From Magallana gigas (Eukaryota): DNA of 64,000 bases. Shown here in pieces: positions 4,136-59,190 of the stretch. Numbering within the stretch: position 1 is the stretch's first letter; every line of letters begins with the position of its first letter. The notes under the pieces were generated by a model. That model did no database searches and was not told the DNA's origin. It worked only from the letters and a program-made list of their open reading frames with translations. The stretch covers positions 21,420,281 through 21,484,280 of the forward strand of contig NC_088861.1 in assembly GCF_963853765.1 (NCBI RefSeq), written 5' to 3'. The translations under genes were made by a program, and so were the position numbers.

Positions 4136-4206
4136 TATCGTATGAAGTACAGACAAGTGACTTTCTACACATCGCTGTAAAATCCATCGGGAAGCCTTAA
4201 CATACC

Positions 4207-5590: not shown

Positions 5591-5960
5591 CAATTTCTAG
5601 AGAGAGACACTGGATGAAATATCTGGTTTCAGCGCTGCGGAAACCCTTTGGAAACTCTGCGGAAACTTAAGGTTACTTTAAGTTTCCGACAGGTTTCAGC
5701 ACGGAAACTTCAAGTTTCATTAAGTTTCCGCAGTGCTGAAACTTAGGCTGTCCATGAATCCAAATGGTTTCCGCAACGGAAACTTACTGAAACTTGATGT
5801 TTCTGCATAGTTTCAATCTCCATATACGTTTGGGATACATATTGTTTACAAATGGTTTCCGCGACGGAAACTTACTGAAACTTGAAGTTTCTGCATAGTT
5901 TCAACCTCCATATACAATTGGGAAACATATTGTTTACAAAGGGTTTCCGCAACTGAAATT
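5590..5960. repeat. Family-E palindrome-rich tandem repeat (GTTTCCGC..GCGGAAAC motifs, ~125-130 bp unit), directly abutting the family-A array.
   Basis: Repeated GGTTTCCGC(A/G)(A/T)CGGAAACTTACTGAAACTTGAAGTTTCTGCATAGTTTCAA units. Related to the array at 11040-11526. Confidence 0.6.
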
Positions 5961-8900: not shown

Positions 8901-10005
8901 CTTCTCAATTCTCCATTTTACAACAGCACCTTCTTGTCCATTTTAACCTTCGCTCGGAATCATAAAGTGCGCCAATACTGACCAATCAGAACCCGCTAAA
9001 TCTTGGAAAAGTGCATCTTTGGATAGTTTAAAATGAATAATGTTTAATCAAAATTATCATTTTTTACCGAATAGTATACTTTTTACATGTATACTTATTT
9101 TAAATAAGAACTGTCGGAGTCAGTATTTCCTGGTTAAATACGACAAAGTATTGGCGTGTGTTTGTATTTGTAACACGTGATTAACCAAAAAAAAATGGCC
9201 GACCGTTTGTTTACAAATGTCTAATGAAATTAAACAAGTTTTAATGAGACATATGTATCAGATTTTGTCTTTAACTATATTAAATTATTTACATGTACTG
9301 ATGATTTTGCCAAACTAAATATGATAGAGCCATATATAGTTGACTGACAAGTAAGTCTTGACTTGTCCAATTTTCACCGCGATTCTAAGCACGGTCATAT
9401 TCTTATTCAAAATATAGAGGTGTGAAAAATATTATGTTTATCACAGAGCAGGTTCTGCATGAACACACAGAAATCACAAATATAATTAGATGCCGATCAA
9501 TTAACGGGGTCCGGTTAACAGCGTTCACCCGTACGGTGAATTTACAACTACGATGAATTGATGGCAATTATTTTACAGTTACACATGTGCACTGATTGGT
9601 CATGCGATGAACAGTACGTTAAGAATACTTATGAAATTAAGATACAAACGCGTTAAACAAGCCGGGAAGTAAGACGTACACGTCGGACTGATATATAAAC
9701 AAAATATAATTTTAATTATTTGGTATACTTTCTACATCAAATGTATACGAATGTATAATCAAATTTTAAAAATGGGATTAAAATCACGTGCACCACATGG
9801 CTAGTGCTGGATTTTAAACTGATTTTGTAATATAACGTATAACTTCAGTAAAATTATAAATAATGCTTATTATATCTTATAACAGAAACATGTGCATGTT
9901 TCATAAACATGTACATGTTTCATAAACATGTATCAATATCTGTGTTTACAGTACAGAAAGTAAATACAAAGTATAGAAATGCACGAATCACATAGGCGTC
10001 GAACC

Positions 10006-12230: not shown

Positions 12231-12485
12231 TGTATGCAATATTTTGCCAAAAAATAACTAAGTTCAAAAGCTGGTATTTTTTTTTCATAAATTATCAGAA
12301 ATCCAAATCCTAGCAATATGCACGCTACTGATATATATGCAATTGATCTGCAAAAGAACTTCATATCCTGTAGGAGGAGTTATCCATATAATGAGGGTAC
12401 CCTTTTGGAAGCAGCCCGCCCACCCGCCATTTTCACCATTTCAATAACCGGATTTTTCCGTTGGAAAACCCGGTTAAAAATTCTC
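12225..12485 (+). mobile_element. Family-D element, truncated copy with about 1 monomer plus a 3' region ending in the hairpin AACCGGATTTTTCCGTTGGAAAACCCGGTT.
   Basis: Matches the monomers and 3' region of the copies at 20466-21130 and 21237-21725 (TATGCAATATTTTGCC..ATGAGGGTACCC..GCAGCCCGCCCACCCGCCATTTTCAC). Confidence 0.6.
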
Positions 12486-17961: not shown

Positions 17962-18257
17962 CTGCAATAAAAATATACATTTTTTTCTTCATCCTTAAAC
18001 TTCTAAAATTATGAAAGTTTAATTTTCATCAAATAAAGAAAATCCAAGGAGAAATAATTAGGAATGAAAATTCAATCTTAAAGGAAACTTCACTTGACAT
18101 GGGTCTGATTTGTTTATTCTCCACCTCTCTTTATAGAATCTGATGTTATCAACATTTGTAAGTCTTTCAATATATGGTGCATTGATTATTAACGGCATTC
18201 AAATTCCACCCTATATTTTAGCTTGTTAATAGAAATGGTAGTGCCCAGTGATATTGT

Positions 18258-18290
18258 GTGTGTGTGTGTCTGTGTATGTATGTATGTATG

Positions 18291-18330
<40 letters not shown>
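18258..18330. repeat. Compound microsatellite (TG)n(TGTA)n(TA)n.
   Basis: Direct observation. Confidence 0.95.
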
Positions 18331-18331
<1 letters not shown>

Positions 18332-18906
18332 TGTAAACGTGGTTATATTGACGAGTTCAAAATTTGACGATTTTTTCGTAAGAGACAATTGGCGAGTTTT
18401 AATTTTGACGAATTTTTGAATAAGAGTAAGAGTTATCTATCTTTGATTTCTTTGCGAACTCTTTTACAAGCGTTGGTATTAATAAAAGTTAACTTTGATT
18501 GAAAAAAAGTCTGTACAGATTTGATGGAATAAAATTGTTCTGTGTATTTTGTTTTTATTCACTATACGATATTGCCTGAGGTAATAAAGTAGGTCAAACA
18601 CGGCATGATAATTACGCACAAAGTTATTATAGTATGTTGTGACGATTGAGTGATAATTGCATTTAAAACATGCTTGATCAGATTTTATGGGTTTTTTAAA
18701 TGCTAATATTACGTGTTTTTATAGCTATTTACATAAATGAATCATTAACTTTGATGAAGTCCTAACGGGATAATGCCGATAAAAAATTCTGGTATTAATA
18801 CGTTCTATATATGATGTTAAGTTTGGCGAGTGGAAATTTTGACGAGAAAATAAAAATCGCCAACATAGTCAAAATTAACACATCGTCAAAATTTCCACGT
18901 GTACAG

Positions 18907-18936
<30 letters not shown>
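18907..18936. repeat. (TA)15 microsatellite.
   Basis: Direct observation. Confidence 0.95.
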
Positions 18937-18939
<3 letters not shown>

Positions 18940-20465
18940 CACATGTATTTCTCAATATACGGTGGATTTCACTCATGGGATAAAGGACTATGTGCGGTGT
19001 GGTCAAATACGAGGGCTGTCCCAAAATAATGTAGACAGGACACATAATTTATAATCTGTTCACTGGAATTTCATTAGACTTCTATGTTTTCTTCAATGAC
19101 CCTTTGGCAAACAATGCTGAAAAGTTCAAATCTGTACTTTATTTATTTCTCGAGAAAATGAATAATTAGTAACAACAAGTTTTGTCAGGCGGCGCGATGT
19201 GCGACGTCAAAAATTTCCAGTTTTACGTTGTTGATAAACCCTCCACATCGTTCACGATAACATTTACGTTTTATTTCCGAAAATGTCTTAGAAAAATATT
19301 ATCTTTGAACATGTACTCTGCATGCACATTCAATATATATTTCTAGTTTTGTTTTGTTTTTAAATATTTTCTAAGTACAAACGATCTGTCGGCTCCAAAC
19401 TTGCCCTGTATTACTTGTTGTCTAACGTCCGTCCTACCAAAATGTGTCGTTCAACATTTTGACGTCCATTGATATCGTTCGGGGTTTCTTTTTTCCACTT
19501 ATTGTCTTCATACTTGTTCAAATATTTTCAATGTTGTTTAACTACTTATTCACAAAACGCATTTCTCATCGATTTTGTTAATTTCGTTTACTTCCAAAGC
19601 CGCTTAGGATTTATTTCATGGTCTTTACAAAATTGTATCAGTTACTGCTGCGCCGCCTTAAACGCTGAAAACGTCATTTTATTACCACTTAACTTTTCAA
19701 CTTGTCACAAAACGCGCTATAAAATATTTAAAAGTTTTGTTATAGCCAAAACATTTTTTGAGTAAATAATAGAATTATTATCAAATATCGGTGTATGTTT
19801 TATTTGAATTTTTTCATTCGAAAAGTACTTTTCCGCCCAATTTTCAATTCATTATGTTGATTTTAACTTTTTGTTTTTGACATTGCGCCGCATGTAGAAT
19901 TTCTGATCTAACATGCTTTCATTACACTAATTTAATCTCAAACAATATTCGATTTTAAAACATTATTTGAATGCAAATTTCTTGAACCCTTTGTGGCACA
20001 AATTTCATCTTCTTTTGTCTTCGCTTAACTGAATAACACCACTTGTCTACGCTATTTTGGGACAACCCTCGTATCTGCCCCCGATTTCAACCAATTTTTA
20101 AATAGTATTGTATAACAATCAAATCTTCATAAATCATTGTACAGAGGATGCCTATCACTTGAATCTTGATTTAAGTCATCATTGCTCATTTGCTGTTTAT
20201 CTATGACGTCATCCAAATAACCCAATTCCCCAAAGCAAACAAATGAAATTATTCTCATATTTGCTCTATATTTTGCATTCAGAAGTATGAATAGTCTTCC
20301 TGTAGTATTTCTCGAAGAACATGACTTACTCTTCTTGGGACTTCAAGCCAGATCACGACCTGATATTATACTTACGCTGATTAATATTTCATTGATGTAA
20401 ACATATTTTAACAATAAAATGATTTCAATAAATTAATTTCTTAGGATTCCAAAAGTAAATTCATC

Positions 20466-21130
20466 ATTTATGTGAACTGTATCCATAATCCATGTCAACT
20501 CGTATCCAGTGAAATGGAGTACCCTATATGCAATATTTTGCCAAACAATGACAAAGTTCAAAAGCTGGTATTTTTTTCATTAATTATTAGAAATCTAAAT
20601 CCTAGCAATATGCACACCTCTGATATATGTGCAATTGATCTGCAAAAGAACAACTTCCTATCTCGAAAACTGTAGGAGGAGTTATCCGTACCATGAGGGT
20701 ACTCTATATGCAATATTTTGCCCAAAATGACAATGTTCAAAAGGCGGTATTTTTTTCATAAATTATCAGAAATCAATATCCTAGCAATATGCACACCTCT
20801 GATATATGTTCAATTGATCTGCAGAAGAACAACTTCCTATCTTGACAACTGTAGGAGGAGTTATCCGTAAAATGAGGGTACCCTATATGCAATATTTTGC
20901 CAAAAAATGACCAAGTTGAAAAGCTGGTATCTTTCTCATAAATAGTCGGAAATCAAATTCCTAGCATTATGCACACTTCTGATATATGTACAATTGATCT
21001 GCAAAAGAACAACTTCTTAACTTGAAAACTGTAGGAGGAGTTATCCGTACCATGAGGGTACTCTTTTGGCAGCCGCCCACCCACCCGCCCGCCCGCCTGC
21101 CATTTTAATAACCGAATTTTCATAACGCGC
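20466..21130 (+). mobile_element. Family-D composite element: 5' arm (TTATGTGAACTGTATCCATAATCCATGTCAAC), about 3.5 monomers of ~180 bp, and a GC-rich 3' region (GGCAGCCGCCCACCCACCCGCCCGCCCGCCTGCCATTTTAATAACCG).
   Basis: Tandem periodicity with conserved ends. The second copy starts 107 bp downstream. Confidence 0.7.
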
Positions 21131-21236
21131 TAGATTGCATTATTCAATTTGTATGCACACACCATTACAGTTATAAGACCACATCTTTCAAAAAACTAGT
21201 GAAAAGCTGTCAATGTGACAGCAAACCAGGTTTTCT

Positions 21237-21725
21237 TTTATGTGAACTGTATCCATAATCCATGTCAACCCTGAATTGATAAAAAATACCTACCGTTTCC
21301 AGTGAAATGGAGTACCCTATATGCAATATTTTGCCAAAAAATGAGCTTGTAGCTTTTTCATAAATTATCAGAAATCTAAATCCTAGCAATATGCACACCT
21401 CTGATATATGTGCAATTGATCTGCAAAAGAACAACTTCCTATCTCGAAAACTGTAGGAGGAGTTATCCGTACCATGAGGGTACTCTATATGCAATATTTT
21501 GCCCAAAATGACAATGTTCAAAAGGCGGTATTTTTTTCATAAATTATCAAAAATCAATATCCTAGCAATATGCACACCTCTGATATATGTTCAATTGATC
21601 TGCAGAAGAAGAACTTCCTATCTCGAAAACTGTAGGAGGAGTTATCTGTACACTGAGGGTACCCTTTTGGCAGCCGCCCGCCCACTTGCCATTTTCACGT
21701 CGGAAAACCCGGTTAATAAAGATTC
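21237..21725 (+). mobile_element. Family-D composite element, second copy: the same 5' arm, about 2 monomers and a 3' region ending in GGAAAACCCGGTTAA.
   Basis: The 5' arm is identical over ~35 bp to that at 20466. Confidence 0.7.
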
Positions 21726-24671: not shown

Positions 24672-24862
24672 AGTCAGATTTTAAATGGTACGAACAATTT
24701 AGATATTTCTTGTAGTCGTATGTATTCCTACGCCAGAGTTCAATATAGTCTTGTTCAACTCGACACTCGGCTGTCTCCGTAAATCTCCAACAAGCAGAGA
24801 GTCTCTCTTGCTTGTCGGAGATTTACGGTGTCAGCCGAGCGTTTGGTTGAACGAGACTTGAG
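24672..24862. mobile_element. Palindromic MITE-like element with a central near-perfect palindrome (CGGCTGTCTCCGTAAATCTCC.ACAAGCAGAGAG|TCTCTCTTGCTTGTCGGAGATTTACGG.GTCAGCCG).
   Basis: A second copy in reverse orientation lies at 63793-63978. Confidence 0.6.
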
Positions 24863-25804
24863 TTCAATATTGCTTGGATCCATACAATTTTCGAGAAATA
24901 TTTTTTTTTACTGATACATAGTTTGATTGAATTAATTTTTATCTTTAAATTTTATTTAACATGTTTCATATGGGGGTTTCTCGACATTGTTGTCGAAAAT
25001 ATTATAATTCGAAAATTCATATTATAGAAATGTGCGTAATTCAAATACAAATTAGAAACTACATGTTCTTGTCATGCAAAATAACATATCATTGATTTTA
25101 AGATAAATAAACATCGACAAAATCAAGTCCCGTCAGTTCTTCAGTACTTTGATTTTTTAATACAACTCACTGTAGCTAGGAATTAATGTCTTTGAAACTC
25201 TGTAACTAGAACTTCCTCAGTTCACATTCAGCTCAGCACTAAGTCTTATACCTTTAATTCTCTCCTCATTAGGCCAGTCACCAATTTCTGTGGAAAATTT
25301 CTAGTCTGAATGTGTTAAATTTTCTACGCAGTGGTTTTTCTGAGATTTTGACAATTTCATTTCACCCTTTTTTCATTACATTTCAGCTTTTTAGACCTCC
25401 ACAAGCTAATATTTCCTGCAAAGGGTTGACCTTCTGTACCATGTGCATGTTGTACCATCACATGTCAGAAACTTACCGATGTATAGTTTACAATGTCCCA
25501 CCCACCTCCTTTTGTGTTATTTTACCTCCCACCTGTAACTTCCAATTTCACAGTGTGAAGTCAAAACAACAGTCATAGCAGCAAGTTTCGCATTTTACTT
25601 AATTCCCCTGATTCTCATGTATACTCTAATCATAAGGGGCCTACATACTGCATATCAATTTCAACAAAAGACATCCCTCCAGCTAGTGATAATCATTAAA
25701 AGGCATTTCATGAATTTTAGCAACACTGCGTAATAACCCTTAAAGTACAGCAACTCTAAATTTAACAAAACAAGATATCTGTGAGCCAATGCTCACTAGT
25801 TATA

Positions 25805-26065: not shown

Positions 26066-26775
26066 ATTTAACAGATAGTTGGCATCCAATTGGTACAGAA
26101 ATATATTCCACAATATGGCATGCCTAAACAAATAGTGTGTTAAAATTTCAAGCATCTGCGATCAATAGGTGCTGAGAAATCTTTGAGGAAAATTTGTTTG
26201 AAAATTTTTGCTAAAATAAACAAAGTACTCATTTAACAGGAAGCTGACGTCCGATTGGTACAAAAATATATCCCACGATATGGCATGCCTAAACAAACAC
26301 TGTGTTAAAATTTACAGCATCTGCGAGAAATAGCTGCTGAGAAATCTTTGACGAAAAATTTTTTGAAAATTTTGGCTAAAAATAAACAAAGTCATTATTT
26401 AACAGGAAGTTGACGTCCGATTGATACAAAAATGTATCCCACAATATGGCATGCCAAAACAAAGTGTTTAAATTTCAAGCAACTGTAATAAATAGTTGCT
26501 GAAAAATCTTTGACGGAAATTTGTTTGAAAATTTTGGCTAAAAATAAACAAAGTACTCATTAAACAGGAATTTGATGTCCGGTTGGTACAAAAATACATC
26601 CCACAATATAGCATGCCTATACAAATACTGTGTTGAGAATTCTTTGACAAAAATTTGTTTGAAAATTTTTGTTAAAAAAAACAGAGTCGTCATTTAACAG
26701 GAAGTTGATGTCTGATTGGTACAAAAATATATCCCACGATATGGCATGCCTATAAAAATACTGTGTAAAAATTTA
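26066..26775 (+). repeat. Tandem array of about 4.5 units of ~165 bp (AACAGGAAG.TGACGTCCGATTGGTACAAAAATATATCCCACGATATGGCATGCCTAAACAAA...).
   Basis: Periodicity read directly. It lies between the MITE and a family-A array. Confidence 0.8.
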
Positions 26776-26782
26776 AAACTTA

Positions 26783-27300
26783 ATATATTCCTATGTAAAA
26801 CTTTAAACCCTCCCCCATTTTGGCCCCACCCTACCCCAAATAGTCATGATCTTCACAACTTTGAATCTACACTACCTAAGGATGCTTCCACACAAGTTTA
26901 AGCTTTCCAGGCTGATTAGTAACTGAGAAGAAGATTTTTAAAGATTTACTCTATATATTCCTATGTTAAACTTTAACCCCCCCCCCCCCCCCCCTTTGTA
27001 GCCCAACCTACCTCCGGGGATCTGATTTTTACAACTTTGAATCTACACTACCTGAAAATGCCTCCACACAAGTTTCAGCTTTCCTGGCTGATTAGTTTCT
27101 AAGAAAAAGATTTTTAAAAGATTTACTCTATATGTTACTTCGTAAAACATCAACACCCCCATTGTGGCCCAACCCTAACCAGGGGATCTTGATTTTTACA
27201 ATTTTGAATCTACACTACCTGAGGATGCTTCCACACAAGTTTCAGCTTTCCTAGCTGATTAGTTTCTGAGAATAAGATTTTTAAAGATTTACTCTTTATT
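26783..27300 (+). repeat. Family-A array, about 3 monomers.
   Basis: Monomer consensus, including an internal C17 tract. Confidence 0.8.
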
Positions 27301-28129
27301 TTCCTACTAGACTTTCAATGTTGTGGTTTCAATGTAACCATAAATAAAGAAAGGGGTCGAACTCTGAACCAAATAAAAAAAACTACCAGCTCGCTTCAAA
27401 AGCCTAATAAATCAATTATTTTTTACAACACTTGCAATATGCATGTATTTTTCAGAAAAGTAATGTCTAAGATACACTTATGCCAAATTTCAAGTTGATG
27501 GGTCTTAAAATAGCGGAGATACACATCATTATTCTCTCAAAGTCGCCAGTTTATTTTTACTCGAACATTTACCGGTCCAGGGCTAACGATGGGATATTGC
27601 CTATGACAACAGCAGTATTGCAACAAGTCGAGAAACATTCGCACTAATCTCACATTAAACACACGATACTTACATCCTTAAATTCCAATAAAATTCCTTA
27701 AATACTCTCCAAACTGAACTTTTATTCTGCAGCCACATCAACTTCTGACCAGACCAACCATTGTGATAGAATTAAATGTTTAACTCAATTTCATTAGTTA
27801 ATATTCCTGATGGTCCAACCAGAATCAGTCTTTCTCGAAGACATCAAAATGGCTGGCCCTGTGATTAGCATGAATGTGATGCGCATGCGCAAAATTGTAA
27901 AAAATCCAAATAATCCAGCTGATTTCCGGACTTTTTTAAAGGAATTTTCATTGACTATTAATTAGAGAATTGATTGAGAAAAAATAAAAACTAATTGGTA
28001 ATCTTCAAGTACCAATGATGTTTAAAATATATTATTAATAAAATATATAAAACAGAACACAGAATTCTTCCAATTTCTCGGTATTAAAGCCCAAAAATTC
28101 GAGTCTATTAATTTTAAAATAGTAGTATA

Positions 28130-29060
28130 GATGTAAAACTTCAACTCCCCTATTGTTGCCCCTCTCCCCCCTCCCTCCATTGTGGCCCCACCCTTCCCCC
28201 AGGGGGTCATGTTTTTCACAACTTTGAATCTACACTACCTAAGGATGCTTCCACACAAGTTTAAGCTTTCCTGGCTGATTAGGTTCTGAAAAGAAGATTT
28301 TTAAAGATTAACCCTACATATTTACACATGTAAAATTTTTAACCCTCCCCCCTATTTTGGCCCCATCCTTACCCCAAAGGTAATGTTTTTCACAACTTTG
28401 AATCTATACTACCTGAGGATGCCTCCAGACAAGTTTAAGCTTTCCAGTCTAATTAGTTTCTGAAAAGAAGATTTTGAAAGATTTACTCTATATATTCCTG
28501 TTAAACTTCCCATCCCAACCCTACCCATGGGAGTCATGATTTTCATGGGATCATGGATCATGATCATGGATCATGGGATCATGATGGGTGATCAGGGGAC
28601 GGTATTGGATATGATATCAGACATTTACGAAATAGATACATCAACACACCGTATTGTTGACATTTACATAGGCCTTCAATAATTCCTATGTTAAACTTCT
28701 GATCCCCAATTGTGGCCCCACCCTTCCCCTGGGGATCATGATTTTCACAATTTCGAATCTACACTACCTGAGGATGCTTCCACACAAGTTTTAGCTTTCC
28801 TTGCTGATTAGTTTCTGAGAAAAAGATTTTTAAAAGATTTACTCTATATATTCTTATGAAAAATGTCAACCCCCCCCCCCATTGTGGCCACACCCTACCC
28901 CCAGGGATCATGATTTTTACAACTTTTAATTTACACTACCTGAGGATGCTCCCACACAAGTTTCAGCTCTCCTGGACAAATAGTTCTTGAGAAGTTGATT
29001 TTTGAATATTTCTCAAAAATTTTCATTAATTTCTAATTGTCTTAATATGACACTCAAATT
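28130..29060 (+). mobile_element. Family-A array of about 5 monomers plus the start of the 3' tail, interrupted at 28543-28600 by an (ATCATGG)n microsatellite.
   Basis: Monomer consensus. The tail begins at ..TTCTTGAGAAGTTGATTTTTGAATATTTCTCAAAAATTTTCATTAATTTCTAATT and then diverges. Confidence 0.7.
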
Positions 29061-29779
29061 TTAGTTGCCTTTTGAAAATGCCTTACTGAAGCATTGTAAA
29101 CATTTAAATCGAAAATATAATTTTTGACCAAAATCGTGACCATGCCCCTTTAAAAGAAATTGTACCATATGGCCCCTCGGTAGAATAACAAAAAATAAAT
29201 ATTGGAAAGTATTCGATTTTTACACTTATTTTTGTATACACTTAATCTTTGACCTTTATGGAGTACCATTTTTACCAAAAATAAGAAAATCCTATGCAAG
29301 ATATAAAACTAAACTTTTTGTAGAGGTACATTGCTAACTTTCAATTCTTTATATTTTGTCTTGGTCTTCCAAATCATAAACGGCTGTTGTTTACCTGGCG
29401 TAAACTCCCATGACTTTTTAACCTTACTCACTTGATTGATGAATACACTCAAATGAAAAATGTTGTTAGTGACATATGTTAGGGAGTTATTATAGTCAGT
29501 GTATTGACAGGCATATCACTGTAATTTATTAAGACCCATCCATTATTTTCATCTTTATTCAAAAACAACAAATGGCTACAAACCAGGATGTTTTTATGTG
29601 GTAGAGTGCTATTTTTAATTTGTTTTTATTTAAATGATTAAATATCAAATGCACCTAATAATTTCTACAATTTGCGTTTTTGAATATCCGCGATGTTTTG
29701 ACTTTCCGTAATTAATAAAAGCATACAATACTTTTGGTTTTTATTATACTTATTTATATAAGTCCTGAGGGTAGGATCC

Positions 29780-32700
29780 CTTACAGAATTGCAGCATATA
29801 TGCAGTACATATGCAGCACATTATCAGTATAAAATCCCAGTAGACTATCAGTAGAGCTACAGTAGTGCTGCAAATGTACTGCAGAGCTTTTAAATGGAAA
29901 AATACAATGAAGCAGCAGACTTGCAGTATGTTTCAAATATGTTAATTAAGACTGCAATTGTACTGCAAATAAGACTGCCAGGCAGTATATACTGCCAGGC
30001 AGTATATGCTGCCCTGCAGTAGAATTCTTGAATATCTCTACAGTCTACTGGCCTGCAGTACTAAATAGCGCTGCTAAGCAGTAGACCTGTTGCAGTGGGT
30101 TTCAAATATCTACTGCACAGCAGTACTGTACACCCAAATATGGAGGCTTTGGTTGGCAGTAGAGTTGCAGCATGTTTCAAATATTTAAATTAGTACTGCA
30201 CTGCAGTACTGTATACCCAAATATGGAAGCTTTGGTTGGCAGTAGAGTTGCAGCATGTTTCAAATATTTAAATTAGTACTGCACAGCAGCATTGTGTATC
30301 CAAATATGGAAGCTTTGGTTGGCAGTAGAGATGCAGCTTGCTTCAGATATTTCATGTACCCTGGCCGGTAGGACAGCAAAACTACTGACATATAGTGATA
30401 TACTATGAATATGGTTGGCAGCCTTTGTAGAATACAACAACTATTCATAACAACTAAAGTAATATCTTCAGGTTTAATTACTCTAGATACATGTACACTT
30501 AATTACAAATAATTTGAAAATATATCTATATTCGCAATACTCATGATATTTGTATAAACGTTACAAAACTTTCAGGTTATTTCAGTTACTACAGTTATTA
30601 CAGTAAATCTATCTATAGTATAAGCAGTAATTTATAATGTGTAATAGTCAGTATATACACAAGCCTTTATGAACTTTCATTGCTGTGCTGCACAGTTAAC
30701 TTTCCCGCTTTTGGTCCTTTGGTCAATTTCACCGCCACTGCTTGGTGAAGGTCCCCTCTTGTAGCGCAAGACTTCTCAGTTCTGCGCTGAAAAATCTGCA
30801 AACAAATTAATGAAAATAATATATCTAAATTAAAACATCATTAATTTAAAAAATGTTAGGTCTAATTAGGTGTTTCTTAAAATGAATGCAGGCCATTTAA
30901 AAATTGTATTTATACAGAGAGATAAAAAAATGAAAATGACAGATGGAACTCTTTTATAAATGCATTGAAGGAGGTATAAAAAGCGTTAGATTTACATTTA
31001 CATACAGTCTTTTATAATTCCATAGATTCTTTAAAACCAATAGAATTTTAATAACTATAAAATGAAAGTTATGAAAAAAAAATAAGGTGCACAATTTTAA
31101 TATTTAAAATGAACAGGTCAAAACTTAAAAAACCCTTAAAAAAATGTATTTTAAATAATTTATAACTTAAATTTGACTTGTACAATTTACAGAAAAAATT
31201 TGCATTGATATACAATTTGAAATGATTAATCTATTAACTAACTGCATTTTAGAATGTCATTTTCTTTAATCCATTCTGCATATTTCACCTCCGGTTGTCT
31301 CGCAGGGCTTTTTGAGCCAGGTATTCTGCCCTCAGCATTCACTTGTTGAACTGGCAAGTCCCTATGGATACAATTTCATACTTTGCTACAGAAGCATAAA
31401 AAAATTTTTAATTTGAATTAAGCCTTTGATACTGAGGATAAATTACAATTATTACTCAAATTCAATGTACCTAATGGAATTTTTATTATCTTTTGTTAGA
31501 ATATAATAACATCATATTAAAATAGCACTCATTATTTAGGCGATTTAATGACTCAACCCTCTTTTGATGCAAACTCAGATTTTTAACAAAGCTTAAATCT
31601 AATACAAATGTGAAATCATTTATTTTGCTTACCTTAAAACAATCAATATTCAGCATCAAGTGCATCTTCCTCATGATCATGCAGTCATTAGTTCTAAAGG
31701 GAAAAAAAGAGAGAATGATTTTACTTATTGTGTTTACTTTCTTTTCTTTTTGTACACATGTATCCATCCATCGTTGTAGCTATAGTATATAACTTTGTAA
31801 CTTTATACAATATAAAAGAATTTTACTGCCATAAATCTAACTTTAAAATCGCCATTTTGAAATGTTTGACAAAAACTGTTCATTTGTTCCATTAAAGTAA
31901 CTACATTTATCTCATATACACTCAAGGTGATATCAACATAAATAGTTTACCTTTCTTCGCTACAACTGCTGCAACATTGTGATTTTTTAATGTTCCATAA
32001 CACATGCTGAAGATCCGTCTGCTTCGTTTAAAAGTGCGTAGTGATAGGCGGAAATGACGTTATAGAATCAAACAACACGGTGACAATATATTCTGATAAA
32101 TTGGGACTTTTCGATTCGGTTTGATATGAACATATATAAAACATACAAAACATTAATTGATCATAATGAATTGATTCTTTTCAATTAGACTGAATTTAAG
32201 GTACTAACGATGTCATTAATAAATATTCAGAATCAAACCATAAGAATTGAAGGAACGTACGAGTTGTTTAGTACGCAGCTTACACAAGTCGTGTCCGTAT
32301 AATTTTAACCCCTTCATGTTTTGAACCTGCAGTCTTTGAAAACTATCAAATAATTGGAACTCAAATAAATATAATATCGTACTTTGTTTCTTAAACTATG
32401 CACTATTTTTGTAAGTAGTATCTTCATTTTAAATTTTACTTTAAATTAAAGAATTAAGTTTTTTCCATCTTAAAGATCGTATTCATTTTGTATTGGCGAC
32501 GAATTGACTTGACACCTTATAAACAATGGCGGACTCTTCGAATAAGAGTGTAACTGCTGGAGTTTCAATCGCTTCTAAGCTAATGCATTCGCGACAGTGG
32601 TCATAGAAATATTCTCCAAACAGATTGATAACGTCTTTGAGGTTAATTGTGTGCTACAGTGATGCCGTTCACTTATAAATATTATTTCGCGACGGAGTTC

Positions 32701-33425
32701 AAATTCTAACGGAATGCATCTTTCGATCTCGAAGGTTGTACATAAGCTACTGACTGACCATGTTTTTACTAACGTGTTAATATGAACTTAAAGATTTATA
32801 AAAATTTATTATTATTGAAACATCGATCATGTCTATTAGTATATTTTTTCAGTGTTGGAACAGTTTTTTTACACATGTATTTTGCATTTCCCACAAACCA
32901 TCAGATTATAGTGTACATGAGCTGTAATATTTGCGGAATATGGTATACCTTCAGAATCTAAGTGATAAAGTTAATGCAGTACAAATGCAGTACCTTTGAT
33001 GCCTGTATTTAAATGATAAAGATAATGCAGTACAAATGCAGCACCTTTGATGCCTGTATCTAAATGATAAAGATAATGCAGTACACCCATATGGCAGTCA
33101 TGTGAATGATAATGATAAGGCAGCAGAAATGCAGTATACCTTTAATACCAGTATCTCTTAATAAAGATAAAGCAGTAGAAATGCAGCCTATTGGCAGTAC
33201 AAAAGCAGCATATGTAATTGTGTGTCACTAACAGAAAGTTTTTGCAGCACATTTTCAGTATATTTACAGTAGATTATCAGCATATACTGGTGCGCAGTAC
33301 ATTATGCTAATAAGTACTGCAAATATACTTCATTTTTGCAGTAGATATTAAGTATAATTGCAGCACTGTTGCAGCATATACTGCCTTTGCAGTATCTGCT
33401 GCAATTCTGTAAGGGATATAGATCC
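29780..33425. mobile_element. ~3.6 kb segment bounded by inverted repeats (CCCTTACAGAATTGCAGCA at both ends), with subterminal arrays of GCAGTAC-type motifs (29790-30360 and 32950-33420).
   Basis: The 29784-29806 sequence is the reverse complement of 33401-33424. The interior holds several short GT-AG-flanked open segments on the minus strand. Confidence 0.35.
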
Positions 33426-33989: not shown

Positions 33990-34151
33990 CATCCTCTTTA
34001 TATTAGGCCAAAAAAAAAAATATGTGTGTTTCCGGTTTCCCGACCGACCCCTTTTTTTCCCGGCCAAATTACCGACCCTAAACTTTTTTTTCGGATTTTA
34101 CCGGAAAAATTTGTCTTCTGCGTCTCCGGTTTCAACATTTACAAAATCAAA
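33990..34151 (+). promoter_or_regulatory. Putative TATA-less promoter / 5'UTR of gene A, with multiple CCGGAA/TTCCGG (ETS-like) motifs and an AAAATGGCGGCG (YY1/M8-like) motif overlapping the ATG.
   Basis: TTTCCGGTTTCCCGACCGACC, CCCGGCC, TTACCGGAAAAAT and TCTCCGGTTTC all lie within 130 bp upstream of the start codon. Confidence 0.35.
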
Positions 34152-34564
34152 ATGGCGGCGACTGTAGCTGCAACGAGTCTGTTAGCGATAAGAGTTAAAA
34201 AATGCAAGCACATTTCAGAGAAGAACGCAATTTTGTGCCTGGAAAACCGTAGAACTCTTCTTGATATTTTTATTGATTTACACGGTGATTTGCCAAAAGA
34301 CTCGAGACTTTCAATCGTTTGTAACAACTCGACAGATCCATCTAAAGGAACATCGTTCGACGTATACCCCAATATGCTGGTAGGCGATCTTGTTGGGACT
34401 TTTGCCATTAAAAGTATTGAATATTCCTGTTCAAAGGAAGAGCAAACAGTAGCATTGGGTGAAATCATAAATAATGCAGCTGAGGCGGCCACCAGTAAAA
34501 CGGTCGATGCATTTCAAGTCCTCATGGCGGGAGGCAGAAAGAATGTTTCATTGAAGACATCAAG
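34152..34564 (+). CDS. Gene A exon 1: MAATVAATSLLAIRVKKCKHISEKNAILCLENRRTLLDIFIDLHGDLPKD...KNVSLKTS(S).
   Basis: ATG in Kozak context CAAAATGG. Donor AAG|GTTTGT, with phase 2 matching exon 2. Confidence 0.6.
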
Positions 34565-35088
34565 GTTTGTATTAAAAGAGAGCTAGTTGTATAATTCATG
34601 GCATGTATAAATGAATTTTACCAGCTCCTTTAATCAGGCAGGGAAGTGTTAAATTATGATTGTCAATGTACACTGAATAACATAAGGTCATTGGACATAT
34701 AATTTTGTTAATCTACTAGAATATTTACAATTTTAGAAAGCATATGCCTTTATTATTTTCATTCTATAGTCTGTAGTTTTCATATCTTGCATCTAAATTT
34801 TGAAAATTTACACTTCCAAATTAAGTAATTGAATATGAATGGTACAGTTGATTTTAAACATTTTTATTATTTATACTGAACAAATGGTGTTTTATTTAGA
34901 AATTGAAGTTTGAATAAAATGTGTGTGTCTGAGGCCTGACAGATATATGTCAATCTGTCCATCCTTTTTTGGCTGGTTTTAAACTGTCTCTGTATTGCTT
35001 TAATATCATTAATAACAATAATTAATGTCTCAATGGTGTGTACTCAAGATTTACAAGGCCTAAAGAATGTTTATGTATCTTTTTTCAG

Positions 35089-35218
35089 TTGCGGTGTTAA
35101 AGATGGCATCAGTAGAAAGGATGAAATTTATAATAAGCTGGTTGAAAACTTTTTCAATTCAAGAAACCTAGATTTTCCAAGAGCTTCCTGTGAACAAGAT
35201 GGATCATACTTTGTACAG
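35089..35218 (+). CDS. Gene A exon 2: (S)CGVKDGISRKDEIYNKLVENFFNSRNLDFPRASCEQDGSYFVQ.
   Basis: Acceptor TCTTTTTTCAG| and donor CAG|GTCTTT. Phase is consistent at both junctions. Confidence 0.6.
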
Positions 35219-37021
35219 GTCTTTATGCTTAATATGTTATTAACTTTCAAATTTTAGAAAACAAAACAGTTTTAACATGACAAACAAGGATTCTTAAGGT
35301 CTGATAGTTTAAAGTCAAATACACTGTGTTTTTAATTGTCATTCTGTATAAAATAAATGTGTTACTCGGTATTCCAATGCCAAAAAGTTTTTTAAATGTT
35401 TTTCCCATACCATATAAGTTATATTTTACTTTTATTTTTAATATTAGAGCAGGAAAAAAGGTATACATGATATATATATATATATAGCTCTTACTTACAC
35501 TAGTATGCTATGCACTGCAGCACGTCAAAACTATAACATGTACAAATAATAGATGCTTGCTTAATATTAACCTACAAACTAGTATAATTTATAACACTTG
35601 TAGTTCTGTGGTCTTGTCTTGATACTGTATCCAGCTTACACACCTTTTATTAGGTCTTTCCACCTTTCAGGTGAAAGACCTATTGTATTTCTTATGTTTT
35701 TTATTATTCTTATTTTTTTTCTTCTCTTTTTTTCCAGGGACAGCTTTTTTATTTCAAGAGATATTGAAACAATTTTTTCTTTATGTTAATGGCCATTAAA
35801 AGTTATGGTACCAAATGACCCTTTGCTTGATAATTCCTAGAACTTACAAAGTTATTGCCCTTGTGTACGAAAAGCTTGTTATCGTTACTCCTCTGAAACC
35901 ATAAGAGATAGAAACTTGGAACTTTTACCAATGTCTTCAGTACACATAGAGGGTTCTTCAATCTATTCATATTGAAAGGATCTGAGCCCCCCTTCTTGTA
36001 GTTATTGCCCCTGAAAGTATTAAGGTTTCCAAAAAATCACTTCAAATTTTTTTATTATTTGACTTAGAGACTTCGGACCACTTGGGATGGAAGCGTCTAC
36101 CTTGGCCGAACAAAATGACATAAAGGTCAAAGGTCAAGGTCATCTGAAAATCTCTTAATTAATGAGTTTTTAGATCTCTTTTGTTTAGGGTGATAGAGAA
36201 AAACTTTTTCATGGATGTAGTAGTACATCATAAGACATTTTAAAATATAACCCTTTGACCCTTTCCATATTACAATTATAGAGTTATTGCCCCTATTGCA
36301 CAAAATGCTTGTTATCGCTACTCCTCATTAACCGTTAGAGATAGAGACTTCAAACCTTTACTAATGTATTCAGTACACTTGGACGCTCCTTCAATCTATT
36401 CATACCGAAAGGGTCCAAAGTCCCTTTATAGCAGTTATTACCCCTGAAAGTTTCGAACATTCATTAAAAACACAAATAACTTTTGAATCAATAATCATAG
36501 ATACATCGGATCACTTGGTATTGAAGCGCCTACATTGTCAGATCAAAATGACATAAAGGTCAAAGGTCAAGGTCAAGCAATACAAATTTGCAAACTTAAT
36601 CGTTTGACACTTTTATATGAAGTAACGCAGAAAAAATACTTCATTGTATTGAAACAATCTTATTTTAAACATAAAACAATGAGGTGGAAAGACCTCTAAT
36701 TGTTCGAGAACAATTAGTCTACTAGTTTAACATGGCGTTCTGGTGATATCCACTTTCAATTCTATTTATACTTAATGTTCTCCTCTAGTATAGAATATAG
36801 TATATTATATATTTTCCATTTTTGTAAAAACATTAGTGTTGCCTTAATCTATACCTTGCACAAACTATAATATTTATATCAAGCAGCACCGATAAGATTC
36901 TGTGATTTGTTTATAATAAGATTTGTACCCTGTTTGATTCATATACCAGTATCAGACTCAATAAAAATTTATATTTAAGGCCCTAGTATATAAAATTATT
37001 CATGTGTTCTACTTATTTCAG

Positions 37022-39382
37022 GTTCTCTGCAATGCATTGTGGTACGTCACTAATCATCATCAAACAATAAATGATGCCTCACTAAGGAAACAAACTCTAC
37101 TGCCAGTTCCAAATATCTTTAATGACTACGATGGATATAACGAAGTAAAAAGGAAAAAACTAAAATCCTGTCCATTGTCTGCATCACTTCTTGATAGCCA
37201 TGCCCAGGCTCTATATTCTTTACTGATGAAGCCTGTGGTCAATAGTTCAGTCTCTTGGAAACAAGGTGCAGAAGATATTAAGCAGTTAGCAGAATGTTTT
37301 ACTGCTTACAAAGAATATCTAGTTGTTCAGAATAAAACTGCCCAGGAAAATCAGAGTAAGTTGTATCCTGTTCGGACCATTGACAAAGAAGCCACCATTG
37401 AACACAGATATGGTAATTTGTCAGGTCAAATTAGAGAGAAATATGTGGACATAAATGAAGCTGTAACCAGTGCTGGAATTATGGCACCAGTGGTTTTTGA
37501 CGAATACAAACATTTGGATAAGCCTTTTGAAAGTAACTTGGAGCGATTCCGCTATTTTCAAGATCTTCAGTTGAAATGTCCTGTTGATATCATTCGTTTT
37601 AGTCCTGGTGGATCGTCAGTCTCAACAGTCTGTATAGTCCAAGTTTCCAATCAAAATAGATCAAACGCTGAAATGTTGACACAAGGTGCTCGATTACTAC
37701 AAACTGTCAGACCAAATTTGAAAGAATATCATACACGAGCTCAGAGACGATTGTTTAAAGAAAAACTGAAAAATGTTGCTTCTGTATTACCATCTGTTGC
37801 AAATCTCATTTATCAAGAGCTGGCATTGGATTTTTCTGCAGCAGAACACCCTGTAACCCAAGAGAGACTTAGACTTATTTTTCTTGGTCAGAATGACCTC
37901 ATTCCTGATTTAAGAGTGCTCAACCCAGGAAGACCAAACAACAAATTTGATGTTTTCTTTGAAACCTTATCAAAAGAGGTAGAAAAGATTACAGCTGCAG
38001 ACGATAGACGGCATGGGACAGCACATTTATCAGAATTTATCTCATTGGAAGAAATGGTTGAGAAAACAGCCAAATCTTGTCCAGAGGGCACTGATATTCC
38101 ATCAAAAAGCTTGGTGAGGTTACAATTTGCCCCTAGGAACCCTTATGCAAGGTCTGCATTGAACTTTACAGGAAAGATTGATGTGCAGTATAAAGTGCAA
38201 AGAAGACAGCTTCGCATTGACCATCCAGATGATCACTATTGCAATGCACAATTCAGATATCTTAAAGAGATGGCAATTGAGATGAGAGAGCATTGTGCTT
38301 TATTGTTCTGTGACGATAAGGCAAAAGTGAGTATTGGAGAACCTGGAAGTCCAGTTTCAACAGGTGTGAGGGGGAAGAAAACCATAGTGCCATCAAGTTC
38401 CACTTTAGTATCTTTAGATCATGACATGACTAAAGCATCCTTGACCCCCTCAGTTATTTTGCACTGTAAAATTCCTGGTAGCATTAATGACTCATTTGTC
38501 CGTGGTCAAGTAACAGTGACAGTTAATGATTCTGTTTTTCAAATGTCATCTCCGTTTCGTCATGCAGTTTCCATTATAAAAGCCTTTGAACAACAGGGAC
38601 ATTTTCCTTATACATTGCTTAAATTCACAGATGGTGGAACTGATCAGAGAAATACACTTGAAAGTGTGAAGTGTGCTTCAATTTGTGTATTTAAGGAAAT
38701 GAATCTTGACATGATGATATTGGCAAGATGTGCACCCGGTCACAGTTATGTTAACCCTGCTGAGAGAGTTATGAGCATTCTAAACTTGGCTCTGCAAAAT
38801 GTAGCATTAGAACGTAAAGAGTCAACAGAAAAAATGAATAAAGTTCTGAAAAGCTGCAACAGTATGGCAGATGTAAGAAATCTTGCTGAGAAGACTCCAG
38901 AAGTAAAAACTGCATGGATAGAATCAGTTGAGCCAGTTGCATCAGTGCTCCGTAACCGTTTCTTGAGATTGAAGTTAAAAGATGATCCAGTAAAGGCCCT
39001 AGATCCAGTTAGTGACCAAGAAATTGATATTTTGAAGCGCCATCTTAGAGAACTTTTCCCAAATCTTGATTTGAAAAAATTACAAAAAGTGCACACAAGT
39101 AAAGTTGAGAGTTATCAGAAGTGGATTGAAACTCATTGTAGAAGTAGACAATACACGTTTCAAATAAGAAAATGCAGAGATGAGAACTGTTGTCTTCCTC
39201 CACGCTTGAGAGATGAGCAAATGCAGTGGTTACCTGATCCAGTTCTAAATGAGACTAAAGATCATTACAAATCCTACAATGAAGTCAAAGGAACAGAAAC
39301 AAATGAATCAGACAGACCTTCTTTAAAAGCAAAACCGATCAAAGAAAAGAAACTGAACCTTAGAGCTACTGTGAATGTATAA
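37022..39382 (+). CDS. Gene A exon 3, a long intronless exon of 786 codons + stop (VLCNALWYVTNHHQTINDASLRK ... NLRATVNV*). Spliced product is about 967 aa with no recognisable domain; Cys-rich near the C-terminus. Possibly TE-derived.
   Basis: Acceptor CTTATTTCAG| at phase 0. It is the only long ORF in the window (792 codons in the track). Confidence 0.7.
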   Translation, partial: VLCNALWYVTNHHQTINDASLRKQTLLPVPNIFNDYDGYNEVKRKKLKSCPLSASLLDSHAQALYSLLMKPVVNSSVSWKQGAEDIKQLAECFTAYKEYLVVQNKTAQENQSKLYPVRTIDKEATIEHRYGNLSGQIREKYVDINEAVTSAGIMAPVVFDEYKHLDKPFESNLERFRYFQDLQLKCPVDIIRFSPGGSSVSTVCIVQVSNQNRSNAEMLTQGARLLQTVRPNLKEYHTRAQRRLFKEKLKNVASVLPSVANLIYQELALDFSAAEHPVTQERLRLIFLGQNDLIPDLRVLNPGRPNNKFDVFFETLSKEVEKITAADDRRHGTAHLSEFISLEEMVEKTAKSCPEGTDIPSKSLVRLQFAPRNPYARSALNFTGKIDVQYKVQRRQLRIDHPDDHYCNAQFRYLKEMAIEMREHCALLFCDDKAKVSIGEPGSPVSTGVRGKKTIVPSSSTLVSLDHDMTKASLTPSVILHCKIPGSINDSFVRGQVTVTVNDSVFQMSSPFRHAVSIIKAFEQQGHFPYTLLKFTDGGTDQRNTLESVKCASICVFKEMNLDMMILARCAPGHSYVNPAERVMSILNLALQNVALERKESTEKMNKVLKSCNSMADVRNLAEKTPEVKTAWIESVEPVASVLRNRFLRLKLKDDPVKALDPVSDQEIDILKRHLRELFPNLDLKKLQKVHTSKVESYQKWIETHCRSRQYTFQIRKCRDENCCLPPRLRDEQMQWLPDPVLNETKDHYKSYNEVKGTETNESDRPSLKAKPIKEKKLNLRATVNV

Positions 39383-50324: not shown

Positions 50325-50470
50325 TACACTACGGCCAATGCGGATCCCGTATTTTCCCGCGACACTGTGATGGTGTTTTAATCTTTTCCGCGATACACCG
50401 TTGCGGTGTTATCTTTGCGGTGATCGCGGAGCCACGATTTTACCGCAATGGTGTAAGACACCGTAACAGG
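50325..50470 (-). promoter_or_regulatory. Candidate promoter region for minus-strand gene C: CCAAT box (ACGGCCAATGCGG), two E2F-like motifs (TTTTCCCGCG, TTTTCCGCG) and several short palindromes (ACACCGTTGCGGTGT, GGTGTAAGACACC).
   Basis: Motifs read directly. The segment lies ~450 bp upstream (minus sense) of the most 5' gene C exon found. Confidence 0.25.
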
Positions 50471-52171
50471 TGTGTGTTTTGTATCTGTGATTAAACCACA
50501 AAGAAGAAAAAAGTGCTGTTTTAATCATTGTTAGAATTTAGATATAGGTATTATTAGAAGAAAAAATCATTATTTTTTTTGAATTGTTTTTAACAAAAAC
50601 TTCTAGAAAACTATTGCTACATGCATTTTGTACATATTGTACAAGAGCTCCAAACAAAATAATGAAATCAAAGGCCGGAACGGCCACAAAGGCATCAAAC
50701 TGACATTTTCTTTTATATAGAATGATATCAATAATTTGAATTTCTGTTAATTTAATAGTCGTATATCAAATAATTTTAGACATAGAATAGAGAAGTATAT
50801 GAATTATGTTTTGTGCTGCTTTAAAAACAAGAATAAGTTTATTTTCTTTTAAAATAGGTATTGGTGCTTTTATAATTCAGTAACTCATTATGGTTACAAA
50901 ATTTGAAGAAATTTCAAAGTTCAAAAATAAATTATTTTCTTTAAACAATTTTCACAGGTTCATGATTTGAATACATTAACAGCATATGTCCCTAATTATA
51001 ATAATAAAACATACTTTTATTAATTTCAATTCCCGTTTGTAACAAGATTCCCTATGGTACGGTTGTTTACAAACAAATCCACAACACGTGCTATCTAAAA
51101 TGCTCGACCAGACCAACTACATAATCGTGCTTATTTTTAGCAACAAAATCACTAGATACGTTTATCGCTTACATTCATTTTGGAAACCGTGCCCGATAAC
51201 AAATAAATTTACGTCGCAAATTTTATTTCTATCGGGCACGCTCTCCAATTAAAATGTAAGCGATAAACTAAAATAATATTTAGTGAATTTTTACACCTGA
51301 TTGTATTCATCCGCCATTTCTAGATTAAGCAAATTTATACTTATGCAATGAGTTGTCAATAACCAGGTAGGCAAAGCTGGTTTTTTTGTACACAAACTTA
51401 TTTCTTATGCGCATTTAAAAGGCGATGCAGAGCATGAATTTGGACGATTGCCAATCCAGACGATTGCTAGAAGGCTGTCGAGCATTAGCTCGACGCCTTA
51501 AAAATGACAATAACAAACTGTCAACCATCTCAAAAATCCATAAAACGAAATACAAATTCAAAGCAGAGCAACATTGTATTACGCAAATCATGCATAAACA
51601 TGTACTTGAAAATTAGTTAAGTATTATTTTTTGGCATATGGTGAGTTGAAAATATGCCACTGATTTTATGAAGATAAATATTACGCAATGTACTATTATG
51701 AGGTCACTACCGTATGCATCAACTCAACTTGTCTGTTTCCCCCTCAATCTGACTCTTATTTAACTCATTAACTAATTTCTGCCCCCCCCCCCCCCTCTCT
51801 CTCTCTCTTGTTTTTAATAAATAAGATTTTATCTACATTTAAGACGGTCGGTGTTAATTATTGTTTATGCAACGGTTATGGTCAATCATTAAACAATTGC
51901 CACCTTGCAGGACAAGCGTCACCTGAATGAACATCCCGTTCACAGGTCACCCGTCTAATGCCTTGGGCCATTTAAATGATGAAGTAGGTGTTAAAATTAG
52001 GTAACGCTTGCATATACACAGCCACTTCTAGGTATCGAGAGTAAAAAACAATAGATTATAAATAACCGGACTGCAGTTTGACTTCAAGGGATCAAAGGTT
52101 TTGAGTGATCAATATTGTAACCTGCTAAGTTATTTTGGGAAAAAATTCAGGACCGGAGACTCACTTTGAGA

Positions 52172-53398
52172 GGGGTCATGATTTTCACAACTTTGAATCT
52201 ACACTACCTGAGGATGCTTCCACACAAGTTTCAGCTTTCCTGGCTGATTAGTTTCTGAGAAGAAGATTTTTAAAGATTTACTCTATATATTCCCATGTTA
52301 AACTTTGACCCCCCCCCCCCCAATTGTGGCCCAACCCTACCTCCGGGGGTTATGATTTTCACAATTTTGAATCTACACTACCTGAGGATGCTTCCACACT
52401 AGTTTCAGCTTTCCTGGCTGATTAGTTTCTGAGAAGAAGATTTTTAAAGGTTTACTCTATATATTCCTATGTTAAACTTCAACCCCCCCCCCCCCCCCCC
52501 ATTGTGCCCTACCCTACCCCCGGAGGTCATGATTTTCACAACTTTGAATCTAGTACACTACCTGAGGATGCTTCCACACAAGTTTCAGCTTTCCTGGCTG
52601 ATTAGTTTCTGAGAAGAAGATTTTTTAACAATTTACTCTATATATTCCTTTTTTAAACTTCGACCCCCCCCCCCTCATTGTGGCTCCTCCCTACCCCCAG
52701 GGGTCATGATTTTCACAACTTTGAATCTACACTACCTGATAATGCTTCCATACAAGTTTCAGCTTTCCTGGCTGATTTGTTTCTGAGAAGAAGATTTTTA
52801 AAGATTTATTCTATATATTCCTACGTAAAACTTTGACACCCCCCCCCCTTGTGGCCCCACCCTTCCCCCGGGGGTCATGATTTTCACAACTTTGAATCTA
52901 CACTACCTGAGGATGCTTCCATACAAGTTTCAGCTTTCCTGGCTGATTTGTTTTTGAGAAGAAGATTTTTTAAGATTTACTCTATATATTCCTATGTTAA
53001 ACTTCGACCCCCCATTGTGGCCCCACCCTACCCCCGGGGGTCATGATTTTCATAACTTTGAATCTACACTACCTGAGGATGCTTCCACACAAGTGTCAGC
53101 TTTCCTGGCTGATTAGTTTCTGAGAAGAAGATTTTTAAAGATTTACTCTGTATATTCATATGTAAAACTTTGACCCCCCCATTGTGGCCCCACCCTTCCC
53201 CCGGGGGTCATGATTTTCACAAGTTTGAATCTTCACTACCTGAGGATGCTTTCACACAAGTTTCAGCTTTCCTGGTCTTATGGTTCGTGGGAAGAAGATT
53301 TTTGAAAATTTCTCGAAAATTTTCATAAATTCCTAATTATCTCCCTTTGCAAAAGGGCGTGGTTCTTAATTTTTTACAGCTTTGAATCCCCTTAAGCT

Positions 53399-53436
<38 letters not shown>

Positions 53437-58573: not shown

Positions 58574-59190
58574 TAACAAGAATAGAATTCCTGGGTCCCC
58601 AGCCGGTCAAGCAGTATACTAGTATCGAGTCTATCGACCAAGGCTGATTTAGGAACTTGACCAAGGTATTAGTGGTATAAACATTTGGTATAAATTTAAT
58701 GAAAATCCGTCAAAATTTGTAGGCATGAGAGCGCTTACAAGGTCAATTTTTGGATAAAACGGAGTCATTATTGTGGTCAAAGTCCCATAACTCCAACAAA
58801 AAGTATCCTCCAATGCTGGTTTTCGAACTTGACCAATGTATTAGTGGTATAAACATTTGGTATAAATTTAATGAAAATCCGTCAAAATTTGAAGGCATGA
58901 GAGTGCTTACAAGGTCAATTTTTGGATAAAACGGAATCATTATTGTGGTCAAAGTCCCATAACTCCAACAAAAAGTATCCTCCAATGCTGATTTTCGAAC
59001 TTGACCAAGGTAATAGTTGTATAAACATTTGGTATAAATTTAATGAAAATCCGTCAAAATTTGTAGGCGTGAGAGCGCTTACAAAAAAGTGTGACGTACG
59101 GACACACGGACGCACGGACACACAGACCCACAGACCCACAGACGGACGCCCGGCATTTCTATGTCCCCGCTCCGCGTTGCGGCGGGGGAC
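58574..59190 (+). mobile_element. Family-B composite element, second copy: 5' arm, about 3 monomers, a (GGAC/GCAC/CACA)n block and the GC hairpin GTCCCCGCTCCGCGTTGCGGCGGGGGAC.
   Basis: Collinear with 39757-40917. Confidence 0.8.

Follow-up and report, generated by a model that had tools for sequence, protein, structure and literature searches.

A stretch of 64,000 nucleotides from Magallana gigas contig NC_088861.1 (positions 21,420,281 to 21,484,280 of the forward strand; hereafter the window, to whose positions all coordinates refer) contains at 29776-33417 a segment that is probably a non-autonomous class II (cut-and-paste) DNA transposon with terminal inverted repeats (TIRs), or the immobile relic of one. 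The segment measures 3,642 bp between and including the arms of its inverted repeat. Its anatomy, namely a short and sharp inverted repeat, motif arrays of about 500 bp that stop at this repeat, and an interior unrelated to either, fits a non-autonomous transposon of Ac/Ds or En/Spm architecture; this reading is well supported by structure and not proven by copy number. The genomic setting is that of a transposon-rich bivalve genome, and the window itself is eukaryotic, repeat-rich and about 33% G+C. As a type the element is ordinary, and it is unusual only in that no superfamily definition is a clean match for its termini and flanks.

The boundaries are defined by a 25-nt repeat present at both ends, as expected of class II TIR elements, the arms of which are complementary at 24 of 25 positions (96%, one mismatch) and perfectly so over 19 nt (Table 1). 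Even when up to three mismatches are allowed, the perfect core, CCCTTACAGAATTGCAGCA, is found in the 64-kb window only at these two sites, against an expectation of 0.02. The preliminary description of this DNA, which was made from its letters, had placed the arms at 29784-29806 and 33401-33424; inverted-repeat ends are indeed real and non-random, although those positions are shifted by about 8 nt and overlap the true arms only in part. Past the 25-nt repeat the two ends have no alignable sequence and share motif content alone, which is expected of binding-site arrays and not of a duplicated arm.

The shared motif is the hexamer GCAGYA, which fills arrays of 470-585 bp just inside each end. 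Together the two arrays hold 45 copies, or about 42 per kb, an enrichment of approximately 70-fold; the density drops to 1.5 per kb in the interior (four copies in 2.6 kb) and to 0.58 per kb outside. Within 2 kb beyond either inverted repeat there are no copies, so that the arrays stop exactly at the repeats. Twelve of the 13 window sites of TGCAGTAC likewise fall in the two subterminal regions, where about one would be expected, and the arrays of GCAGTAC and GCAGCA motifs reported there earlier are thereby corroborated. The spacing of same-strand hexamers peaks sharply at 11 bp in both arrays (nine and eight pairs); since this is one helical turn, such sites lie on one face of the DNA. Where two opposed hexamers stand 8-9 bp from each other the result is a palindrome, for example GTACTGCAGTAC, and the local hairpins that arise are highly stable (z = -5.3 and -7.2).

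Both arrays also include longer tandem repeats. Every 83-nt unit on the left combines a GGCAGTAGAGTTGCAGCA dimer with a GTACTGCA(C/G)(T/A)GCAGTAC palindrome, and an incomplete fourth unit is located at 29912-29956. Every 51-nt unit on the right contains a TGCAGTACAAATGCAGCA dimer. As each long unit thus has one GCAGTA-N5-GCAGCA dimer, the tandem repeats can be regarded as amplified binding-site modules. The left-hand repeat had been noticed before with a period of about 60 bp; it exists, with a period of 83 nt, and the unit quoted at that time was itself 81 nt long. In the same array, the minus strand of 29798-29886 folds into a stable hairpin of opposed GCAGCAC/GCAGTAC motifs (z = -5.3). In Rfam this hairpin gave only a sub-threshold mir-15 match (22.5 bits, the gathering score being 57.3), most probably owing to a chance resemblance between the motif and the miR-15/16 seed.

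In Ds, the subterminal AAACGG repeats serve the Ac transposase in this way, as do the 12-bp repeats of En/Spm for TnpA. Binding of subterminal repeats by transposases is described for Ac/Ds and for the pogo-like element Lemi1 (PMC3260210, PMC1636448). By analogy with Ac/Ds and En/Spm, a transposase encoded elsewhere would recognise the GCAGYA hexamers in the roughly 500 bp inside each end of the element. Such a protein would bind cooperatively, many of its sites being 11 bp apart on one helix face and others forming palindromic pairs 8-9 bp apart, and would then pair both ends, cut at the 25-nt TIRs and reinsert the element elsewhere. Mobility of 29776-33417, like transposase binding to its hexamers, is thus predicted from this likeness. 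The element would supply no transposase of its own, its 2.6-kb interior being non-coding filler with a CpG-rich, promoter-like island. A transposase gene is absent from the segment: the longest unspliced open reading frame (ORF) encodes 93 amino acids, and there is no significant match in Pfam, no convincing one in protein databases and none among PDB sequences.

Table 1. Features of the element at 29776-33417 (window coordinates; a slash in a sequence marks a splice junction).
Feature	Coordinates	Strand	Description
Left terminal inverted repeat	29776-29800	+	ATCCCTTACAGAATTGCAGCATATA; perfect core 29778-29796
Left subterminal array	29776-30360	.	26 GCAGYA hexamers in both orientations; one CpG
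Phased run, left array	29791-29865		about 11-bp phasing
Hairpin, left array	29801-29883		
Palindromic tandem repeat, left array	29974-30021		17-nt unit, 2.8 copies
83-nt tandem repeat	30111-30352	+	2.9 copies, 92% matches
Interior	30361-32949	.	2.6 kb, 30% G+C, unrelated to the arrays
Terminal-exon-like frame	30667-30795	-	acceptor TTGTTTGCAG, then IFQRRTEKSCATRGDLHQAVAVKLTKGPKAGKLTVQHSNESS, then stop
Exon-like segment	31633-31693	-	61 nt; acceptor TTTTTTTCCCTTTAG, donor AAG/GTAAGC
Weak candidate first coding exon	31951-32005	-	ATG at 32005, MCYGTLKNHNVAAVVAKK, donor AAAG/GTAAAC
CpG-undepleted island	32000-32800	.	0.8 kb, 32 CpG; observed/expected 1.5 versus window median 0.55
Right subterminal array	32950-33417	.	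19 GCAGYA, mostly in opposite orientation to those adjoining the left end; one CpG
51-nt tandem repeat	32956-33085	+	2.5 copies, 93% matches; degenerate copies on to 33188
11-bp phased run, right array	33244-33282		
Right terminal inverted repeat	33393-33417	-	reverse complement ATCCCTTACAGAATTGCAGCAGATA; perfect core 33397-33415

The interior is not featureless. Its CpG-undepleted island has the second highest observed/expected ratio in the window, whereas the rest of the element stays at or below 0.6, and it may represent a promoter or an unmethylated region adjoining the right array. Scored by a simple splice-site measure, the 61-nt exon-like segment has the sole acceptor/donor pair of such strength on both strands of the 64-kb window, and none arose in 30 shuffles; judged from sequence, the segment probably is, or once was, a true exon. 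A single frame of it is open, TNDCMIMRKMHLMLNIDCFK, and the weak candidate first exon is out of phase with it. The exon-like segments of the preliminary description are present, including the one with the AAG/GTAAGC donor, at the coordinates of Table 1 rather than at 31640-31700 and 30670-30790. It had also been stated there that no phase-consistent chain could be assembled; such chains do exist, but they are short, reaching 70 amino acids in the scan and 58 when the 61-nt segment and the terminal-exon-like frame are put together manually. Together with the island, the strong exon-like segment points to a possible spliced transcription unit, probably non-coding or truncated. The island adjoins the right array, and the exon-like pieces run leftwards to the frame that immediately precedes the left array. 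A copy of the family's own spliced gene that has lost internal parts would have this layout, which suits such a remnant no worse than it suits captured host DNA.

Capture of the latter kind was the second half of the earlier proposal, which envisaged a possible large non-autonomous DNA transposon that carries or has captured part of a host gene. Its first half agrees with the anatomy found here (25-nt TIR, confined arrays, no transposase ORF). In its full form the proposal amounts to a Pack-type transposon, with a host gene fragment, promoter and exons included, lying between transposon ends. The sharp change of composition inside the element, the uniqueness of the strong acceptor/donor pair and the terminal-exon-like frame all speak for it. 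Homology does not: the six-frame stop-free stretches of at least 28 amino acids from 30360-32960, joined into a query of 1,964 amino acids, had no match at E<=0.01 among 5.8 billion proteins. This database includes Mytilus proteomes and does return Mytilus proteins for a neighbouring ORF. Pfam searches with single frames and with a concatenate gave sub-threshold noise alone, and no PDB sequence was matched by the six-frame stretches.

A HMMER search with the single frame 30670-30837(-), which overlaps the terminal-exon-like frame, produced two weak matches (E = 2e-5 and 2e-4). Both were judged spurious, as the proteins are internally repetitive and the scores are summed over six to seven repeats. 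When the element was compared by BLAST with the remainder of the window, its interior showed no similarity, and no parental locus lies there; the best spliced ORF does not exceed 70 amino acids. With no credible match in proteins, Pfam or PDB sequences, gene capture is unsupported at the protein level, and a Pack-type origin of the interior is considered unlikely.

Several observations weigh against the interpretation of 29776-33417 as a transposon or its relic, the first being that only one copy of the element is to hand. The 64-kb window yielded no other, either with the core pattern or by BLAST of the element, and neither did a BLAST comparison with about 59 kb of mussel sequence surrounding homologues of the neighbouring gene (some 50 kb of it from Mytilus galloprovincialis and M. 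edulis). An 18-nt terminus pattern hit nine loci in JGI metagenome contigs and IMG/VR, all of them chance 18-20-mers devoid of extended similarity, and a 19-nt pattern gave three chance matches in 185,579 prokaryotic genomes; one chance match from these collection scans reached 27 nt at 93%. Six-frame translations of the subterminal arrays, used as protein queries, matched nothing, so no ORF of a related copy is present in the protein database. None of 10 element ORFs and 8 flank ORFs was found by exact look-up in a collection of 15 billion proteins, the locus being absent from protein-indexed assemblies. Reconstructed empty-site patterns and the flank sequences likewise had no paralogue in the window or the approximately 59 kb of fetched loci. 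To our knowledge, no autonomous partner of the element has been described. Finally, the flanks, GGTAGGAT before CCC and ATATAGAT after GGG, show no unambiguous target-site duplication, and termini and flanks together fall short of the full definition of any named superfamily.

The same observations could be taken to mean that the structure is local, single-copy and never mobile: a short inverted repeat and arrays of transcription-factor-type motifs with a non-coding transcription unit or a regulatory region between them, or else an inversion-duplication. The single copy seen across all the material searched (window, related mussel DNA, metagenome, viral and prokaryotic collections), the want of a clear target-site duplication, and the CpG island and exon-like pieces in the centre would all be accommodated in this way. 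However, an inversion-duplication should leave long alignable arms, and here the alignment ends after 25 nt. Arrays that end exactly at an inverted repeat, with no hexamer in the adjoining 2 kb, are moreover the signature of transposon ends, and the copy count, given the collections covered, is not a negative from a searched mussel genome. A non-mobile local structure is consequently regarded as improbable.

A further alternative concerns the position of the ends. The only flanking duplication is the dinucleotide AT, whose left (29776-29777) and right (33416-33417) occurrences could be copies of a 2-bp target-site duplication; as AT is palindromic, it is indistinguishable from two more bases of inverted repeat. 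Only palindromic dinucleotides can be inverted repeat and direct duplication at once, which leaves two readings of the junctions, AT/CCC...GGG/AT or TA/CAG...CTG/TA. According to the second, the segment would be a Tc1/mariner/pogo-type element with true ends TA/CAGAATTGCAGCA...TGCTGCAATTCTG/TA (29784-33409) and a TA duplication, inserted in the palindromic target ATCCCT-TA-AGGGAT. TA followed by CAG is the standard junction of Tc1 and pogo elements and occurs on both sides (29782-29786 and 33407-33411). The IS630/Tc1/mariner group generally makes TA duplications (PMC10045372), and pogo-like elements can carry subterminal repeats bound by their own transposase (PMC1636448). This reading nevertheless presupposes a coincidental complementarity of six more bases on either side, at about 1 in 4,096, and a target palindrome that is found nowhere else in the window; the flanks beyond it have no further inverted repeat, and hexamer arrays of 500 bp are atypical of the superfamily. 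It accordingly receives little credence here.

Least probable of all, and scarcely to be entertained, are a Helentron-derived non-autonomous element (HINE) and a foldback element, both of which are common in bivalves and have tandem repeats between inverted-repeat ends: the internal 83- and 51-nt tandem repeats agree with either, and the dispersed arrays of about 166-172 bp abundant in the window resemble the satellite-like repeats that bivalve Helentron derivatives carry (PMC7492417), but HINEs are defined by subterminal inverted repeats of 11-15 nt, a 3' palindrome, T-rich boundaries and insertion at TT, whereas the repeat here is 25 nt long, the left boundary, GGTAGG, is not T-rich and the sole hairpin beyond the right end lacks significance (z = -0.9), while a foldback element needs long arms, inverted copies built of subrepeats, and the arms here align for 25 nt only.

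The satellite-like arrays of about 166-172 bp are short and scattered through the window (approximately 3100-5650, 26700-29070, 42800-44550 and 52130-53400), and one of them ends about 700 bp to the left of the element. On the other side, 0.6 kb downstream, lies a transposon-like unit at 34001-41377. Its plus-strand ORFs 34026-34586, 37004-39382 and 39397-39831 correspond to a protein of about 949 amino acids with 155 homologues in mussels, clams, scallops, priapulids, amphioxus, acorn worms and starfish, and with no Pfam or PDB match. The product of ORF 37004-39382 matches a public sequencing-run protein at 100% identity and a hypothetical protein of Mytilus galloprovincialis at 87%, with relatives at 50-65% in many marine invertebrates. 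Relative to a public contig of 99.7% identity, the copy in the window has two extra blocks, 35651-36726 and 39763-40918. The second is largely filled by a 172-bp tandem array (39817-40803) that recurs at 58632-59103 and yields artefactual repeated ORFs of the type 'FVSALMPTNFDGFSLNLYQMF...'.

Elsewhere in the window, a tRNA-Thr gene (anticodon GGT; 48561-48635, minus strand) is the sole Rfam match at the gathering threshold. The arms of a 162-nt inverted repeat, 62581-62742 and 62850-63011, are 91% complementary and separated by a 107-nt spacer; a related third copy occurs 39 kb from them, at 24707-24868, and these sequences may be a further hairpin-forming or MITE-like repeat. A 179-bp tandem repeat family occupies 20384-21643 and 12281-12359. 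Other CpG-undepleted islands, with observed/expected values above 1.3 against the median of 0.55, are found at 18100-20200, 3200-4200, 9000-9900 and 50000-50900 and may be unmethylated promoters or young insertions.

If confirmed, the element would add one more non-autonomous DNA transposon family to the poorly catalogued mobile DNA of bivalves, with little import beyond annotation. Its helically phased hexamer arrays would offer an evident candidate binding site with which to look for the autonomous partner, and the exon-like segment and the CpG island would matter only if transcripts showed that the element carries an expressed unit. Given CC..GG termini and a possible AT duplication that fit no superfamily cleanly, the family could also refine the classification of bivalve DNA transposons.

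For the preferred reading, a non-autonomous TIR transposon with ends at CCC...GGG, no superfamily is assigned. ISL2EU, of the PHIS superfamily, is an animal-only group whose transposase has a THAP DNA-binding domain that could read a short repeated motif; the coding part of these elements consists of a DDE/THAP transposase plus a YqaJ-domain ORF, and the element here is non-coding. ISL2EU elements make AT duplications at an A/AT/T target and have an inverted repeat usually beginning with GG (PMC4482050). The AT beside both ends of the present element is of this duplication type, but the target context is G-AT...AT-A, with outer bases G and A, and the repeat begins with CC (CCCTTACAG). The 5'-CC..GG-3' termini are instead those of piggyBac, which makes 4-bp (TTAA) duplications (PMC10045372): the ends here are CCCTTACAG...CTGTAAGGG (CCCTT..AAGGG), and the asymmetry of internal repeats between the two ends is a further point of likeness. 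Neither TTAA nor any 4-bp duplication is found, however, the flanks being GGAT and ATAT. Kolobok, with a TTAA duplication and 5'-RR..YY-3' termini (PMC9587614), was rejected for the same want of TTAA and for the YY..RR termini seen here.

Other assignments were likewise rejected. A hAT element would call for an 8-bp duplication, but with ends at CCC the flanks GGTAGGAT and ATATAGAT match at three of eight positions, with ends at CAG the flanking 8-mers are reverse complements instead of direct repeats, and the termini are not YARNG. CACTA/CMC elements have 5'-CACTA (CAC) termini and a 2-3-bp duplication; the termini here are CCCTT and the 3-bp flanks GAT and ATA. Duplications of TTA/TAA (Harbinger) and CAG/CTG (NuwaI) were dismissed because the two sides are reverse complements and not direct repeats. 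It is tempting to speculate, as a long shot, that the element belongs to an undescribed animal cut-and-paste lineage with CC..GG termini and no TTAA (an AT duplication or none), helically phased GCAGYA binding arrays and an interior acting as functional cargo, in which a CpG-island promoter would drive a spliced non-coding or micro-ORF transcript mobilised with the element.

Among architectures, Pack-MULE-type transposons are similar in having transposon ends around a sequence of different composition with exon-like pieces; they differ in that the present element shows no homology to a host protein in the databases searched or to a parental locus in the window, and has no 9-bp duplication and no MULE-like termini. 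The closest resemblance is to Ac/Ds (hAT) and En/Spm-dSpm (CACTA). The element departs from these in lacking an 8-bp (hAT) or 3-bp (CACTA) duplication, in its CCC..GGG termini, which are neither YARNG nor CACTA, and in its motif, GCAGYA. It shares with them short terminal inverted repeats, an interior that is unrelated or deleted and does not encode a transposase, and, over a few hundred subterminal base pairs, a short motif repeated in both orientations, which in Ac/Ds and En/Spm-dSpm is bound by the transposase and is predicted to be so here.

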